DNA of 64,000 nucleotides. Origin: Candidatus Wolfebacteria bacterium GW2011_GWA1_44_24 (lineage in GTDB: Bacteria > Patescibacteriota > Minisyncoccia > UBA6257 > UBA9933). The DNA is taken from the NCBI GenBank assembly GCA_001001115.1, contig LCIO01000001.1:172710-236709 (forward strand), given 5' to 3'. A model generated the notes under the pieces. It made no database searches. It was not told where the DNA came from and was given only the letters and a program-made list of their open reading frames with translations. Below are positions 3,010 through 34,026 of this stretch, piece after piece. The position numbers and the translations under genes are program-made. Numbering within the stretch: position 1 is the first letter of the stretch; every line of letters begins with the position of its first letter.

Positions 3010-4197
3010 TTACTCTTTTTCTTCGCTTTTTTCAATTTCAGAACCGGCTTCGGCGATTCCTTCGGCCACCGCTTCTTCCGGCCGCGAAAGCGAACGCACG
3101 TCTATCTTCCAACCCGTGAGTTTTGCCGCCAGCCGCACATTTTGCCCCCCCTTGCCGATAGCCAAACTTAACTGGTCTTCTGGAACAAAAACCCGGGCTT
3201 CGCGGCGGGGCAAAATTTCCACTGCCTTGGCTTTAGCCGGCGATAAAGCCGCGGCCACAAATTTATCTGGGTTTTCCGACCATTCAATAATGTCGATTTT
3301 TTCATTGCCTAATTCATTGGTTACGGCCATCACGCGCGTCCCCCGCTGACCAACGCAAGCGCCAACCGGATCCACTCCCTCAACTTTTGAATCAACCGCT
3401 ATTTTTGTCCGATTGCCGGGCTCCCGAGCAATCGCTTTGATTTCCACCGTGCCTTCGTGAATTTCCGGCACCTCCAACTCAAATAACTTGCTGACAAACT
3501 TGGGATGAGATCTCGAAAGGACCAATCCCGGCGACCTCCCGCTTTCTTCTTGAACCGCCAAAAGATAAAATTTCAATCTCTCACCGATACGATAATATTC
3601 GCCGGGTATGGTTTCATTAAAAAACATCACTCCGACCGCCCGGCCGATGTCGACAAAAACATTGCCGCGCTCAATGCGCTGAATGACTCCTGAAACGATT
3701 TCTCCTTCTTTTCCGGCATATTCTTTTTTGATTGATTCCCTTTCCGCTTCCCTAATTTTCTGCAAGACCACCTGTTTGGCCGCTTGAGCGGCAATACGAC
3801 CAAAATCTTCGCGCTCCTCTAAAGGAAATTCCAATTCTTCGTCAATCTTAACGTCGGATTTAACGGCTTTCGCTTCGTCAAGAAAAATATGCCTTTCCGA
3901 ATTGTAAAGCGGCAAAAGTTCTTTTTCACTCTCCTTACTCTTATCTTCAATTTCCGGTTCTTTCCCCTCTTCCTTCACTCTTACCGTTGTTTCATCAACC
4001 ACGGTTCTTATTTTCCAAAATTTAAAACTGCCGGTTTTGAAATTGATTTCGGCTTTGATGTTTTCTCCCCTTTTCCCGAATTCCTTGCGGTAAGCGGCGG
4101 CCACGGCCGATTCCACGGCTTCTGCGACCATCGATTTATCGATGCCCCGCTCATCGGCGATTTGTTCTATAACTCTGTTTAGATTTTTGATGTCCAT
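3010..4197 (-). CDS. nusA: Transcription termination/antitermination factor NusA
   Basis: 395 aa. It has an S1 domain (GEIVSGVIQRIERGNVFVDIG) and two KH domains (GACVGQRGTRV, AIGKGGQNVRLAAKLTGWKIDV). Confidence 0.93.
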   Translation of the reverse strand: MDIKNLNRVIEQIADERGIDKSMVAEAVESAVAAAYRKEFGKRGENIKAEINFKTGSFKFWKIRTVVDETTVRVKEEGKEPEIEDKSKESEKELLPLYNSERHIFLDEAKAVKSDVKIDEELEFPLEEREDFGRIAAQAAKQVVLQKIREAERESIKKEYAGKEGEIVSGVIQRIERGNVFVDIGRAVGVMFFNETIPGEYYRIGERLKFYLLAVQEESGRSPGLVLSRSHPKFVSKLFELEVPEIHEGTVEIKAIAREPGNRTKIAVDSKVEGVDPVGACVGQRGTRVMAVTNELGNEKIDIIEWSENPDKFVAAALSPAKAKAVEILPRREARVFVPEDQLSLAIGKGGQNVRLAAKLTGWKIDVRSLSRPEEAVAEGIAEAGSEIEKSEEKE

Positions 4198-8569: not shown

Positions 8570-8637
8570 AAATTCCAAATCACAAATTCCAAATAACAAA
8601 AATTTATTTGGGATTTGGCGCTTGTGATTTGGGATTT
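8570..8637 (-). promoter_or_regulatory. Long imperfect RNA hairpin spanning the nusB 3' end and the rnc leader
   Basis: Arm 8570-8596 (aaattccaaatcacaaattccaaataa) pairs with arm 8604-8637 (ttatttgggatttggcgcttgtgatttgggattt). That gives 13 + 14 paired positions, each block with one mismatch. A 7-nt bulge (8617-8623) and a 7-nt loop complete the structure. The left arm begins 8 nt upstream of the rnc start codon. Confidence 0.55.
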
Positions 8638-13474: not shown

Positions 13475-14077
13475 TCAATTGAGAAAATTTTTACAAAAAC
13501 TCCTCCGATGAATTGCCGAATATCCGTATTTTTTTATGGCCTTTATATGTTTTTTTGTTCCATAACCTACATTATGAATAAAATCGTAGCGCGGATATTT
13601 TTTATGCAATCTCTTCATCAATTTATCGCGGCGGACTTTGGCGACAATTGACGCCAAAGAAATCGCTTTAATCTTTTCGTCTCCTTTAATAACTGTCTTA
13701 ATTTTTATATTTTTAAATTGTAATTTTGATTTGTTAATATATAATCCGCCATCGAGATAAACTCGACAATTCTTAATTTTAAATTTTTTAATTAAACTCC
13801 CAAAAGCGTTTGCGGCCGCTAAATTCGCCGCCTGAGAAATATTTATTTTATCAATTGTTTTTGGTGGAACTGACACTATCCCATAGGATAGTATTGATTT
13901 TTTGACATAATTAAACCAAGCTTCTCTCTGTTTCGGCGTTAATTTTTTGGAATCTTTCGGTTTTATTTTAAATTTTTTTTTGATTGGCAGCGCCAAAGCC
14001 ACGACAACAACCGGCCCGGCCAACGCTCCCCGCCCCACCTCGTCAATGCCGATAATATATTTATATTTTGCCGACAT
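13475..14077 (-). CDS. rnhB: Ribonuclease HII
   Basis: 200 aa. GIDEVGRGALAGPVVVVA, DSKKLTPKQRE and ASIVAKVRRD are RNase HII motifs. Confidence 0.92.
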   Translation of the reverse strand: MSAKYKYIIGIDEVGRGALAGPVVVVALALPIKKKFKIKPKDSKKLTPKQREAWFNYVKKSILSYGIVSVPPKTIDKINISQAANLAAANAFGSLIKKFKIKNCRVYLDGGLYINKSKLQFKNIKIKTVIKGDEKIKAISLASIVAKVRRDKLMKRLHKKYPRYDFIHNVGYGTKKHIKAIKKYGYSAIHRRSFCKNFLN

Positions 14078-25431: not shown

Positions 25432-25923
25432 TTAATATCTTAAATGAAAAACTACAATGCCGAAAGCCACGGCCACATTCAATGATTCTTTTTTTCCTTT
25501 CATCGGAATTTCCAAAATTTTGTCGGCGCGCTTCAAAATCGATTGCGGCAATCCTTTAATTTCGTTACCCAAAACTAACACAATTTTCTTTTTTTTCACT
25601 ATCCTATCCGACGATCGTCGGATAGGATAGTGAATGCGATAATACGGTATGGATTTTTTATTTTGTTCAACGGCAAAAATTTTATATTTTTGCTTTTTAA
25701 GCTTATCAATCAGCCGCGCTGTTTGGCCACATTTTTCCCATTTTACGTATTTTTCCGCGCCGAGCGAAACTTTCGCCAGTTGCGGCCGCGGTTTGCCTAA
25801 TTCGTCAATCGGCTTTGGCGTAATGCCGCAGAGATATATTTTCTCGATTCCCGCGGCGTCGGCGGTACGAAAAATTGAACCGACGTTATGCAGACTGCGG
25901 AGATTATGAAGAATAACGGTCAT
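25432..25923 (-). CDS. SpoU/TrmH-family RNA 2'-O-methyltransferase
   Basis: 163 aa. LHNLRSLHNVGSIFRTADAAGI, LVLGNEIKGL and IPMKGKKESLNVAVAFGIVVF are the SPOUT motifs 1-3. Confidence 0.88.
   Translation of the reverse strand: MTVILHNLRSLHNVGSIFRTADAAGIEKIYLCGITPKPIDELGKPRPQLAKVSLGAEKYVKWEKCGQTARLIDKLKKQKYKIFAVEQNKKSIPYYRIHYPIRRSSDRIVKKKKIVLVLGNEIKGLPQSILKRADKILEIPMKGKKESLNVAVAFGIVVFHLRY
25597..25632. repeat. 36-bp perfect palindrome inside the SpoU-methyltransferase CDS
   Basis: cactatcctatccgacgatcgtcggataggatagtg is identical to its own reverse complement. It occupies exactly 12 in-frame codons (HYPIRRSSDRIV), between the SIPYYRI and KKKKIVLVLGNE segments. Confidence 0.9.
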
Positions 25924-25924
25924 T

Positions 25925-27214
25925 TCAATTATTCAGCGGCGTTGACGATAAAATCACAAAATAAATATCCCTGAGAAAAGATGTTGGGATTTCCGAAATG
26001 ACTTCACTTTCTTTTGTTGATTGTCCGTTTAGATAAGAATTTTCATCCACCGAGCCGTAAAAAGTTGATTGCGATTGATAAGTCATAAATCTAAACTTAT
26101 AATATTTTGCCGGAGCAAAAGTAAAATTGTTTTTAACAGGAACAGTCCAGATGTTAGAACCAATATAATAATCAGAGCAAAGAGGACCCGGATAATGTTG
26201 CGGTATATTAGTGCAAAAAGCCGCATTTTCGGAAAAAGATTCCATATTAAAATAATTGGCATCGCTGTATTGATAAATTATTATGGTTATAAAACGTCCC
26301 GCGGCGCTTGTTTTTACCGCAATCGCTTCGGGCGCTCCAGATAAACCATTGCCAAGAGTCTGATAAAATATGCCATTGCTGTTTCCAATTTCGGAGACAG
26401 AACCGTCTGTTTGTTGAACTATGACAAATTGGCTGAATAACGAATAGGGAATGAGTATCTCTTTGCTTAAAGCTGTAAAAGTTGGATTATTGTTAACGTC
26501 ATAACCAACGATTGAAAATTTATATTTTCTTCCGACTTCATTGATGGTAATTTCGCTTGATGTAGCGAAGGTTATAATATCCGGCAAAACCGAGGTTGAG
26601 CTGGAAACCAAATAACTCACGTCGCTTATTTTATAAGTCAAAGCCGGAGAAGTTTCGTTAAAATATCTTGGCTTGTCCCAGCTTAAAGAAAGCGTTAATG
26701 TGCTGGTTGAATAATTTAATTTAAAATTTTGTGGAATGGATTGTGAAATGTTTGCCGGAATCTCAATCGGAGATTGAGATTTAATAATAAAATATATATC
26801 TTTCATCGAGGCATTAATTTCCGAACCTACGCCGTTGTCTTTTGCCGCTTTACCGTAAATATAAGAAGACTCATCATTTGAACCATAAAAATAGGGAGTT
26901 GTCTGATAAGTTAAAAAATTAATTTTATAATATTTATTGGGATCAAAATTAAAACTTCGTTGGATGGGAATCGTATAATCCTTATCTTTATCAACTTCGA
27001 AACCAAATTCAGGACAATTGCCGTCGGGGATATTATCATCATAAACAATTCCGTAACCGCCATACCGATAACAAGTGCTGGAGGAAATTTTGGTCAAATT
27101 GTTGTAATCAGAACTATCCGACTGCCAAAAATCAACACTAAAATAATAAGACGGATTACCTGGACCGGGGGGAAATTTAGCGTGAAATGTTACGCTTTGC
27201 GGCGAACCAATCAA
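25925..27214 (-). CDS. Secreted/cell-surface protein with two copies of a novel ~60-130 aa domain and a central FN3-like segment
   Basis: 429 aa with a TTG start in the track. FNFDPNKYYKINFLTYQTTPYFYGSNDESSYIYG...DIYFIIKS (about 26777-26956) is repeated as FTFAPAKYYKFRFMTYQSQSTFYGSVDENSYLNG...DIYFVILS (about 25946-26125). Confidence 0.6.
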   Translation of the reverse strand: MIGSPQSVTFHAKFPPGPGNPSYYFSVDFWQSDSSDYNNLTKISSSTCYRYGGYGIVYDDNIPDGNCPEFGFEVDKDKDYTIPIQRSFNFDPNKYYKINFLTYQTTPYFYGSNDESSYIYGKAAKDNGVGSEINASMKDIYFIIKSQSPIEIPANISQSIPQNFKLNYSTSTLTLSLSWDKPRYFNETSPALTYKISDVSYLVSSSTSVLPDIITFATSSEITINEVGRKYKFSIVGYDVNNNPTFTALSKEILIPYSLFSQFVIVQQTDGSVSEIGNSNGIFYQTLGNGLSGAPEAIAVKTSAAGRFITIIIYQYSDANYFNMESFSENAAFCTNIPQHYPGPLCSDYYIGSNIWTVPVKNNFTFAPAKYYKFRFMTYQSQSTFYGSVDENSYLNGQSTKESEVISEIPTSFLRDIYFVILSSTPLNN

Positions 27215-28578: not shown

Positions 28579-28634
28579 CAGACTACAGTTTACAGACTAC
28601 GGTGAAATCGCCGTAGTCTGTAATCTGTAAACTG
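28579..28634 (-). promoter_or_regulatory. Extended intergenic hairpin between the SPW-protein gene and the glutaredoxin gene
   Basis: A perfect 13-bp stem (28590-28602 ttacagactacgg / 28611-28623 ccgtagtctgtaa) has an 8-nt loop. It is extendable by 5 + 3 further pairs across mismatches. The arms contain the direct repeat acagactac. On the minus strand it is followed only by ttttaatt and then the ATG. Confidence 0.5.
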
Positions 28635-32097: not shown

Positions 32098-34026
32098 ATG
32101 TGCGGAATCGCCGGAGTCTATAAATTTAATAATTCTCAAGTCGTTTCGGAAAACGAAATCAAAAAAATGTCCGACGCGTTAGTGCATCGGGGGCCGGACG
32201 GCAACGGCGCCTATTTTTCGGCTGATAAAAAAATCGGTCTCGGGCATCGACGGCTGGCGATTATCGACCTTTCGCCCGCCGGAGCCCAGCCGATGGCCAA
32301 CGAAAATAAAACAATCTGGATTGTTTTCAACGGCGAAATTTATAACTTTCAAGAACTTCGTTCAAAACTGGAAAAAGCCGGCCATTCGTTCCGCTCCCGA
32401 AGTGACACCGAAGTCATCATCCACAGCTACGAAGAATACGGATTCGATTGCGTTAAAAAATTCAACGGGATGTTCGCTTTCGCGATTTGGGACGAAAACA
32501 AACAATTACTTTTTGCCGGCCGCGACCATTTGGGAGTCAAACCTTTTTATTACGCAATCCAAAACGGAAATTTCTACTTCGGCTCGGAAATCAAAGCCAT
32601 CCTCGTCCATCCCGATTTTAAAAAAGACATCGAGGAAACGAACATATCTCATTATTTGACATTTTCCTGTCTTCCTTCGCCTCACACATTATTCAAAGAC
32701 ATCAAAAAATTGGCGCCAGCCAAATATTTGATAATCAACAAAAACGGAATTGCCGAAGAAAAAGAATACTGGAATCCCGTAGCAGAAGCTTCGCTTCGCT
32801 ACGGGGCAAGTCCCCTCGCCGAAAAAGAATATATAGACGAAATAAGAAAACTTTTGCGGGATTCCGTAAAATCACAAATGGTTTCCGATGTCCCTTTCGG
32901 CTGTTTTTTGTCGGGCGGAATTGATTCTTCAACCAACGCCGCTTTGATGTCGGAAGCGCTCGGCAAACCAGTAGAAACATTTTCAATCGGCTCTCAAAAT
33001 TTCCAAAAATACAACGAATTCCAATATTCCCGGAAAATGGCGGAGTTTTTGAAAACAAAACCGCACGAACTCCTGACAACCGATGAACATTTGAAAGAAT
33101 TTTTAAAACAATACGCCTATTTTAACGATGACCCGAACGGCGACCAGGTATGCGTGCCGCTTTTCTGGCTTTCGGAATTTACAAGAAAAAACGGCGTAAC
33201 CGTAATCCAAATCGGCGAGGGTTCGGACGAAATTTTTGCCGGCTATCCCGCCTATATCCAGGCGATAAATCTTTATAATCGCGTCTGGCGATGGCTAGAA
33301 AAAATGCCCCAATCCGCCAAAAACGGAATTTTTAAATTATCAGCCGGCGCAATTCATCCCCGTTTTGATTTTTATAAAGAATATCTTTTGCGGCTTAAAA
33401 ACAACCAGGAGCCGTTTTGGGGAAATGCCGTCGCTTTCGGAGATTTTCAAAAAGAAAAACTGCTGACTACCGAATATAAAAATAAATTAACTGAATCCAG
33501 TTATTCAATCGTTGACAATTACTATAAAGAAATTAAAAATATCGATTCTTCGGCCGATTTTATGAGCCGGCTCACGTATCTTGAAATAAAACATCGGCTG
33601 CCGGAATTGCTGTTAATGAGGTCCGACAAAATGACGATGGCTCATTCCGTCGAAGCCCGGGTGCCGTTTCTTGACAAACGGCTGGTGGAACTAGCTGTCA
33701 GCATTCCGGCAAACATAAAAATTAAAAATGGCGAACCGAAATATATTTTAAAAAAATCAGTCAATGGAATAATTCCCAAAAAAATCATTTGGAGAAAAAA
33801 ACAAGGGTTTGCCACTTCAATGAGCGAATGGTTTAAATCCGAAAATCCGATGTCCAAAGAATTGTTGAAAATTATATTCAATTCAAAGCTTCGCGAAAAG
33901 AATATCTTAAATTACGACTATATCGAAGATTTGGTTTACGCCCATCAAAAACAAAATATCGAACATAATTTCCGCCTTTGGAATTTGGTCACTTTGTCGC
34001 TTTGGCACGATTATTGGTTTGCTTAA
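32098..34026 (+). CDS. Asparagine synthase (glutamine-hydrolysing)-family amidotransferase
   Basis: 642 aa. It has the N-terminal nucleophile MCGIAG, HRGPDG, RLAIIDLS and the PP-loop FLSGGIDSS. Confidence 0.88.
   Translation: MCGIAGVYKFNNSQVVSENEIKKMSDALVHRGPDGNGAYFSADKKIGLGHRRLAIIDLSPAGAQPMANENKTIWIVFNGEIYNFQELRSKLEKAGHSFRSRSDTEVIIHSYEEYGFDCVKKFNGMFAFAIWDENKQLLFAGRDHLGVKPFYYAIQNGNFYFGSEIKAILVHPDFKKDIEETNISHYLTFSCLPSPHTLFKDIKKLAPAKYLIINKNGIAEEKEYWNPVAEASLRYGASPLAEKEYIDEIRKLLRDSVKSQMVSDVPFGCFLSGGIDSSTNAALMSEALGKPVETFSIGSQNFQKYNEFQYSRKMAEFLKTKPHELLTTDEHLKEFLKQYAYFNDDPNGDQVCVPLFWLSEFTRKNGVTVIQIGEGSDEIFAGYPAYIQAINLYNRVWRWLEKMPQSAKNGIFKLSAGAIHPRFDFYKEYLLRLKNNQEPFWGNAVAFGDFQKEKLLTTEYKNKLTESSYSIVDNYYKEIKNIDSSADFMSRLTYLEIKHRLPELLLMRSDKMTMAHSVEARVPFLDKRLVELAVSIPANIKIKNGEPKYILKKSVNGIIPKKIIWRKKQGFATSMSEWFKSENPMSKELLKIIFNSKLREKNILNYDYIEDLVYAHQKQNIEHNFRLWNLVTLSLWHDYWFA

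Follow-up and report, generated by a model that had tools for sequence, protein, structure and literature searches.

How does a perfect palindrome of 40 nucleotides (nt) come to lie, in frame, inside the gene for an RNA-modifying enzyme, and what, if anything, keeps it there? The question is raised by a 64,000-nt stretch of the genome of Candidatus Wolfebacteria bacterium GW2011_GWA1_44_24 (contig LCIO01000001.1, positions 172,710 to 236,709; this whole stretch is called the window, and all window coordinates are counted from its first letter), in which a SpoU/TrmH-family methyltransferase gene carries such a palindrome in the codons of a variable loop. The same site proves to be palindromic in close orthologues, where the two arms have changed in concert, and to hold other, unrelated palindromes in distant ones. 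Perhaps the answer lies in template switching during replication, which could have both made and repaired the symmetry; the arguments for this account, those that weigh against it and those for its rivals are set out below.

The palindrome and the loop it encodes

The 36-mer CACTATCCTATCCGACGATCGTCGGATAGGATAGTG at 25597-25632, described in an earlier note on this DNA as an exact, in-frame palindrome of twelve codons, is indeed its own reverse complement; the perfect symmetry in fact extends two bases further on either side, giving a palindrome of 40 nt (25595-25634, assigned to no strand) whose 20-nt arms, ttCACTATCCTATCCGACGA and TCGTCGGATAGGATAGTGaa, abut without a spacer. At its middle lies a core, GACGATCGTC (25610-25619, likewise without strand), which is conserved in the alignment of close orthologues discussed below and has CGATCG as its centre. 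It is the longest perfect hairpin of the window, the runner-up having a stem of 12 bp, and neither a second copy nor a half-site was found within the 64 kb when up to 3 mismatches were allowed; 100 shuffles of the window likewise gave zero matches at ≤3 mismatches. No target-site duplication is evident at the palindrome in the window, and a search of viral contigs with CTATCNNACGATCGTNNGATAG gave no matches. Could the symmetry have been made by the assembler? The exact 40-mer is present in 10/10 contigs that encode the same protein, drawn from several groundwater samples and two assembly pipelines, and the reading frame runs on past it on both sides; because the 40-mer is identical in all ten, an assembly artefact is very unlikely, and this reading was rejected. 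The 18-bp RNA stem that the earlier note had envisaged is also what folding predicts for the region (18-bp stem, GAUC loop, -33.3 kcal/mol, z=-7.4). Rfam gave 0 matches at gathering score across the whole window. An intrinsic terminator was considered and rejected, there being no terminator-like site on either strand between 25300 and 26000 and an A run after the stem on the sense strand. As for the composition of the window, GATC is four-fold under-represented (57 observed vs ~226 expected) and CTAG is nearly absent (7 vs 20-230 expected); nearly all of its genes are on the minus strand, and its GC skew stays below zero from end to end.

The host gene (25432-25923, minus strand) encodes a protein of 163 amino acids that matches the Pfam profile SpoU_methylase (PF00588) over residues 2-158 (E=2.7e-35; profile positions 3-141 of 142), has sequence matches to the PDB structures of TrmH and RlmB, and is 100% identical to a protein from Candidatus Wolfebacteria GW2011_GWA2_42_10. 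A Foldseek search with an AlphaFold2 model returned the methyltransferase of TARBP1, RlmB and TrmH, with template-modelling (TM) scores of ~0.75. The three SPOUT motifs (N-x-G-x-x-x-R, G-N-E and E-S-L-N-V) are all present, and their residues N13, G15, R19, G119, E121 and E146-V150 are invariant in an alignment of 30 orthologues. Judged by profile, motifs and predicted alpha/beta fold, the gene is a SpoU/TrmH-family gene of the SPOUT class, encoding an RNA 2'-O-methyltransferase.

What does the palindrome add to this protein? Its twelve in-frame codons (25597-25632, minus strand) encode HYPIRRSSDRIV, residues 98-109, an extra loop segment flanked by SIPYYRI and KKKKIVLVLGNE. The SIPYYRI codons (25633-25653, minus strand; residues 91-97) include that of Tyr94, which is invariant in the 30-sequence alignment, and the KKKK-IVLVLGNE codons on the other side (25561-25596, minus strand; residues 110-121) comprise a Lys run, a beta-strand and SPOUT motif 2. 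When 120 homologues, 69-81% identical outside the loop, were aligned, the stretch between SIPYY and the strand (K)IVLVLGNE was hypervariable in both length and sequence, and the remainder highly conserved. The distance from S to E is 20-21 residues in minimal orthologues vs 31 in the window, i.e. some 10-12 extra residues, which bears out the earlier view that the insert lengthens the spacing before motif 2. That this would be a surface loop, a point that the earlier note had left to modelling, agrees with the AlphaFold2 model (mean predicted local distance difference test score, pLDDT, 79), in which residues 97-113 lack secondary structure, residues 101-110 reach a mean pLDDT of only 56, and a strand at 114-118 leads into motif 2. 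In the model, then, the palindrome-encoded residues are extra residues of an unstructured, low-confidence surface loop ahead of the motif-2 strand, and the insert peptides abound in R, K, S and G.

Palindromes at the same site in orthologues

Is the palindrome private to this gene? The earlier note had taken it for an insertion and had looked to orthologues with the homologous residues in non-palindromic DNA as evidence to the contrary. DNA was retrieved for ~120 distinct SpoU orthologues (those singled out below carry L numbers), with their flanks serving as background since the sampling was centred on SpoU. Wolfebacteria-like orthologues do possess the homologous residues, RRSSD(R/T)IV, and their DNA is palindromic as well, with co-varying arms, so that the insertion is not private. 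The window gene and its seven close orthologues together form a set of 8 sequences, family A, with the shared peptide motif RRSS(D)xIV or RRSSD(R/T)IV. All seven relatives carry a palindrome or near-palindrome at the identical site, each with the centre GACGATCGTC, which is invariant in 8/8 sequences, synonymous positions of the CGA and TCG codons included.

The arms around this core differ between relatives in a paired manner (CGT..ACG in L091, TGT..ACA in L094, AAT..ATT in L097, CCT..AGG in the window, L093 and L092), and adjacent pairs are altered jointly (CG/CG, TG/CA, AA/TT, CC/GG). Pairing holds for 82.5% of the cells in the 8-sequence alignment, as against 24-44% in slid registers, and two-sided changes occur in 7/20 pairs. 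Double-changed cells number 12, compared with 3.1±1.4 in shuffles, and none of 500 shuffles reaches 12. Against these 12 double changes, some of which are transversions (C-G to G-C, C-G to A-U), there is a single G·U cell. The mismatches that do occur are mostly A·A and C·A and come from synonymous drift (TCG>TCA, CGA>AGA). Wobble bias, which was tried as a test of selection on sense vs antisense RNA, proved uninformative, synonymous drift on an A-rich coding strand being sufficient to explain the C·A and A·A mismatches. The relation to the gene's own codons is plainest in L091, L094 and L097, which read TAC TAT xxx ATC CGA CGA, then TCG TCA GAT xxx ATA GTA, so that reverse-complementing the codons of the peptide YYxIRR-SSDxIV gives the same series back; the conserved Tyr-Tyr codons, that of Tyr94 among them, open the 5' arm. 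The window, L092, L093 and L095 have an additional copy of a (Y/H)YP(I/N/K) module after the native YYxI, an arrangement that would fit either one more short duplication or a deletion in the other class. Decayed palindromes are found at the site in L092, L095 and L096.

Distant orthologues have palindromes at this SpoU site too, perfect ones of unrelated sequence with arms of up to 20 bp. A spacer of 1 nt separates the arms in L028 (20 bp), L011 (19 bp) and L042 (14 bp), and one of 4 nt in L043 (12 bp, plus a second hairpin); L100 (15 bp), L015 (11 bp) and L102 (10 bp) are centred on CCGCGG, CCCGGG and ACGCGT, respectively. In L011 and L028 the start of the conserved strand (RKIGL, RLVL) is encoded by the 3' arm, which the 5' arm repeats in inverted form. 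Because one arm consists of codons for conserved residues in several orthologues, these palindromes are best seen as local inverted duplications and not as foreign DNA. In 15/113 orthologues the hairpin at the site beats all 200 codon shuffles. None of the 36 minimal-loop orthologues (20-22 residues) beats codon shuffles at p<=0.01, a hairpin score of at least 9 being reached in two, and 13-35% of those with longer loops do. Not every long insert is palindromic: those of L178 and L180 are at best decayed, and the L179 insert, KCPAKSEARRRRQKSNVGCKK, has a flanking direct repeat, AATGTC, and re-uses AATGTCGGATGT of L178 in another reading frame, so that this loop looks like a complex indel with no simple palindrome. 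A neighbour-joining tree of 120 sequences, built on a short core of 150 residues, was unresolved, with loop types scattered over it.

Palindromes elsewhere in SpoU genes and beyond

Are such palindromes confined to the one loop? A second hot spot in SpoU is found ~49 nt ahead of the EQ codons, within the loop that precedes the helix LI(D/E)KLKK (e.g. CGAGCAACTTTAAAGTTGCTCG, CAAGCAATTTCAAAATTGCTTG and ATCAACCGCGCGGTTGAT). It is occupied in L014 (3202-3223), L107, L022, L068, L103, L105, L130, L157 and L150, and in a weak version in the window (about 25708-25725); the 3' arm here codes for the helix start, and covariation is borderline (23-25/500 shuffles). A third loop, between KLKK and YKIF, has a GC-rich mini-palindrome in L097, L116 and L178. 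In L174 a 31-nt perfect palindrome (1522-1552), ATACGGAGCCTACATAATGTAGGCTCCGTAT, lies over the conserved SPOUT motif 1 (IRSLHNVGSV) and is achieved through synonymous codons only. A mutational process filtered by tolerance fits this distribution, because the palindromes fall in variable loops and that of L174 comes about via synonymous codons.

The palindromes of the SpoU site also have a character of their own. A spacer of 0-1 nt is seen in 7/9 perfect palindromes at the site, as against 29/117 elsewhere in 765 kb of the same genomes (Fisher p=0.002), where other perfect hairpins have a modal loop of 4 and a terminator-like look. Among spacer-less palindromes at all loci with arms of at least 8 bp, CGATCG is the commonest centre (6/53), and it centres 5/6 of those with arms of at least 19 bp; per occurrence, hexamers that contain GC are 10-20x likelier than AT-only ones to be extended into palindromes. 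Perfect palindromes of great length, with arms of 18-22 bp and no spacer, occur in L024 (902-939), L181 (256-293), L094 (889-932), L020 (4129-4172) and L144 (1966-2001), and the first four of these are centred on (G)CGATCG(C).

Several look-alikes deserve mention. In the window, the rnhB gene for RNase HII contains the short hairpin tACTATCCTATgGGATAGTG (13873-13892, minus strand; peptide ILSYGIV). The earlier note had placed a hairpin with a shared heptamer at 13875-13892; the hairpin is real, and what it shares with the outer arms of the SpoU palindrome is more than a heptamer, namely 10 + 8 nt (ACTATCCTAT...GGATAGTG on the coding strand), with the 5' arm in a different reading frame from that of the SpoU palindrome. 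The pattern ACTATYC-N(0-30)-GRATAGT has 2 matches in the window vs 0.00 in shuffles, and the heptamer ACTATCC by itself is not clearly enriched there (7 vs 2.6 expected, with 4/100 shuffles as high). An RNase HII gene in another Parcubacteria metagenome-assembled genome (MAG) carries, in frame, the 40-nt near-perfect palindrome ACACTATCATTTTATCACGATCGTGGTAAAATGATAGTGT (L089 5265-5304), which encodes ATLSFYHDRGKMIVSK ahead of the strand KKIVVLVDG. A GC mini-palindrome, TCCGCC-N(2-6)-GGCGGA, was found 16 times in ~0.9 Mb, mostly in frame (SAxGG, PPAGG), for example at L016 2508-2537, L028 4880-4909, L060 3300-3315, L097 631-646, L068 202-216 and L165 1786-1800; by our own estimate about 0.3 would be expected by chance. 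Tandem pairs of it in the SpoU loop of L016 and a GAPDH loop of L028 are identical at 27/30 nt, with the same four hexamer arms and different loops, and an identical 16-mer occurs in two different SpoU loops (L060, L097).

Other inverted repeats of the window include two shorter perfect hairpins, AATCTCAATCggaGATTGAGATT (26759-26781, in the open reading frame (ORF) upstream of SpoU) and AAAACAATCtgGATTGTTTT (32308-32327, inside an ORF), whose arms are similar to those of the SpoU palindromes in L011 and L028 (CCAATCT/AGATTGG). Two long imperfect intergenic inverted repeats (8570-8637 and 28579-28634; arms of 31 and 27 nt, 81-85% complementary) are built of internal direct repeats, e.g. AAATTCCAAAT and CAGACTAC.

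How the palindrome may have arisen

The account that we favour, with a confidence that is about evenly balanced and on the testimony of the sequences, is that template switching in replication, at a core that is short, GC-rich and palindromic, makes the coding palindrome and later re-symmetrises it, the permissive loop tolerating the result. In replication, the nascent strand would arrive at the short self-complementary core, here CGATCG, and would switch template, either to the opposite strand or back onto itself; the sequence just made would be copied as its reverse complement before the strand switched back, and the product would be a spacer-less inverted duplication of the adjacent codons. 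Such a copy would be kept only if its length were a multiple of three and it lay in a loop tolerant of extra residues, and the loop before the motif-2 strand of a SPOUT enzyme would be a place of this kind. Later switches at the same core might re-copy one arm onto the other, so that a substitution would show as a compensatory double change; re-copying could restore a perfect palindrome, as in the window genome, and without it the palindrome would decay. We infer that its maintenance needs no function.

These thoughts find support in what is known of template switching, which creates perfect stems and multi-base compensatory changes in one event (PMC8794818), and for which quasi-palindromes are hotspots in Escherichia coli (PMC7202029). 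Both signatures are seen here: the palindromic product is the exact reverse complement of the immediately adjacent sequence, as the codon-wise peptide and the spacer-less arms attest, and clustered, pairing-restoring multi-base changes occur without G·U intermediates (12 double-changed cells vs 1 G·U cell). Since the complementarity runs through the centre and the arms are perfectly Watson-Crick paired, with no wobble, origin and maintenance at the DNA level are favoured over RNA-level selection alone. Template switching would account for the gene's own codons in the arms, the missing spacer and the missing G·U pairs, as well as for the lineage-specific sequences, the placement in variable loops and the occurrence of perfect and decayed versions side by side.

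A number of findings weigh against this account. Strong hairpins are 4-12x denser in SpoU genes than in neighbouring coding sequence: 57 kb of SpoU genes yield 0.47 per kb, 6 of these hairpins scoring at least 14, as against 0.13 per kb, with 4 reaching that score, in 447 kb taken from the cores of other long ORFs. Such a SpoU excess is not predicted by a purely mutational model. Conservation is stronger in the core ACGATCGT, synonymous positions included, than in the arms, and the mismatches of relatives sit near the centre rather than at the ends. The centre or the outer arms, moreover, come back in palindromes that lie in other contexts. Three with a CGATCG centre flank the SpoU gene within ~25 nt, before its start in L024 and L181 and after its stop in L094; the palindrome of L144, 19 nt past the SpoU stop, has the centre ATATAT and ACTATTCC arms (ACTATTC); and the outer arms and ACGATCGT centre of the L089 RNase HII palindrome are the same as those of the window palindrome. 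Nor is the in-frame recurrence of TCCGCC..GGCGGA in different genes and genomes, as read from the sequences, easily explained by local copying alone. In short, template switching by itself leaves the SpoU excess, the core conservation and the related palindromes elsewhere unexplained.

Could it be, then, that the stem-loop is itself selected? A cis-acting element, acting in the mRNA or in single-stranded DNA to control SpoU expression, with template switching perhaps responsible only for its birth, is a serious though rather doubtful alternative; it might serve as an RNase III or stability site, make the ribosome pause ahead of the knot-forming half of the protein, or be an operator bound by the methyltransferase. 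ErmC, another rRNA methyltransferase, autoregulates its translation through binding its own mRNA. A selected element would sit well with a position that is kept while the sequence varies, with arms that co-vary significantly around a better conserved core, with the very stable predicted stem (-33 kcal/mol), with the enrichment of strong hairpins in SpoU over flanking coding sequence, with the long palindromes that hug the SpoU start or stop or follow it at a short distance, and with the L174 palindrome, where synonymous codons alone furnish the symmetry over motif 1. It sits less well with the fact that a significant hairpin is present in only ~13% of orthologues and has decayed in some, with covariation that is borderline at the second hot spot, with the lack of a terminator-like T run or an Rfam match, and with complementarity that continues through the centre, where an RNA hairpin cannot use it, and that nearly excludes G·U and tolerates A·C mismatches. 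The centres and loops, too, are wholly different by lineage (CGATCG, ACGCGT, CCGCGG, CCCGGG, GTCCGAC, GGCTAAGCC), which makes a single loop-specific binding protein unlikely, as it does mimicry of the enzyme's substrate by the hairpin. A bolder version, which we think improbable, would have parcubacterial SpoU carry a dedicated, evolutionarily mobile regulatory stem-loop, sited variously in the 5' leader, the three coding loops or after the stop, and made by a CGATCG-dependent DNA process; binding of its own message by the enzyme, or by a nuclease, is one possible route. At similarly low probability stands a small dispersed palindromic element, akin to a repetitive extragenic palindrome (REP), a miniature inverted-repeat transposable element or a Rickettsia palindromic element, with ends CACTATC...GATAGTG and centre ACGATCGT, that survives in ORFs when in frame.

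Related palindromes do exist at a distance, as a dispersed element would require: in the window rnhB (ACTATCCTATgGGATAGTG), in the L089 RNase HII gene and in the intergenic spacer of L024 (CCTATCtcACGATCGTgaGATAGG), and ACTATTCC..GGAATAGT is found in both the intergenic spacer of L144 and the SpoU loop of L015. The ACTATYC-N(0-30)-GRATAGT matches of the window point the same way, as do the separate TCCGCC-N-GGCGGA mini-palindrome with its shared tandem pair and the REP-like palindromes of L025. The latter (302-335, 787-818, 2885-2927 and 3526-3564) are perfect, with arms of 14-21 bp, and comprise two copies each of two sequences, one pair flanking the SpoU gene of that MAG. What stands in the way is that the SpoU palindrome is single-copy in the 64 kb even with 3 mismatches, that the heptamer is not clearly enriched, and that target-site duplication and viral matches are lacking. 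One arm consists, besides, of the gene's own conserved codons (L091, L094, L097, L011, L028), the arms of orthologues vary by compensatory change and not by replacement, and the ATA GTG / CAC TAT ends could arise independently from the Ile-Val strand-start codons of SpoU and RNase HII. The earlier note's suggestion, one of several, that the palindrome is the footprint of a small palindromic mobile or repeat element is not supported in the sense of a recent trace of a multi-copy element like those of Rickettsia, the window holding no second copy or half-site and the segment being common to orthologues. There is finally the idea, to which we attach next to no credence, that the palindrome is incidental, either to selection for an Arg/Ser/Lys-rich, RNA-contacting loop peptide, which the R-, K-, S- and G-rich inserts would suit, or to an assembly or amplification chimera, such as can occur in metagenomic genomes like those of the GW2011 series. 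Peptide selection cannot yield 40/40 self-complementarity, nor the invariant rare CGA and TCG codons in 8 species, and the loop peptide is conserved no further than the palindrome imposes; a chimera would hardly recur as an identical 40-mer in continuous frame in 10 contigs from several samples and assemblers.

How does the favoured reading, template switching, compare with systems already described? Template-switch or quasi-palindrome correction (Ripley/Lovett; Mönttinen & Löytynoja 2022, PMC8794818; PMC7202029) yields the same one-event reverse-complement repeats, repair of stem mismatches and G·U-free multi-base changes. Its known cases, however, come mainly from rRNA and microRNA stems and from reporter hotspots, whereas the SpoU product is translated, recurs at one protein loop in many lineages, attains arms of 20 bp and favours CGATCG as its centre. 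Rickettsia palindromic elements are ~100-150 bp long and multi-copy, with a family consensus. The SpoU palindrome, by contrast, measures 40 nt, has no second copy in 64 kb and draws part of its sequence from conserved codons of the gene itself, and its orthologues vary by compensatory change; multiple consensus copies were not found within the 64 kb, nor is the segment foreign to its host gene, given that orthologues share it and that the arms include conserved codons. The likeness to those elements lies in in-frame palindromic DNA, conserved protein genes, surface-exposed segments and a reduced genome (PMC10969869).

REPs and bacterial interspersed mosaic elements (BIMEs), with their REP-associated tyrosine transposases (RAYTs), and the cyanobacterial highly iterated palindrome HIP1 (GCGATCGC) are likewise short palindromes, and the GCGATCGC/CGATCG core recurs in long Parcubacteria palindromes. 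REPs, however, are intergenic, imperfect and highly repeated, and HIP1 is an 8-mer without long arms, so that both are unlike the SpoU palindrome. Neither a repeat family nor a RAYT gene was seen in the window, and the SpoU palindrome is not a REP/BIME. Palindromic amphipathic repeat coding elements (PARCELs; PMC2996958) resemble it in being palindromic DNA within ORFs that is read as protein. They consist, though, of longer tandem repeat units that encode amphipathic helices, whereas the SpoU insert is short, non-repetitive and simply translated. In yeast mitochondria, GC clusters and byp elements are palindromic DNA within ORFs, and byp elements are bypassed by the ribosome. The GC clusters are GC-rich hairpins in AT-rich genes, like the TCCGCC..GGCGGA inserts; the SpoU insert is translated and not bypassed. 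Searches of the literature turned up no account of coding palindromes that recur in genes of the candidate phyla radiation (CPR).

What would it mean if the template-switching account were true? The SpoU loop would be an unusually clean natural record of template-switch mutagenesis in a protein-coding gene, one in which a single enzyme loop shows the birth of palindromes (up to 40 nt), the concerted evolution of their arms and their decay across dozens of uncultured lineages. It would follow that a stem can show apparent 'compensatory evolution' with no selection on the RNA, which matters for covariation-based discovery of RNAs in CPR genomes, and that loops in these reduced genomes owe much of their variation in length to inverted duplication. 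As for the preference for CGATCG and the excess in SpoU, either might be a sign of a sequence-specific DNA process or of some regulatory use.

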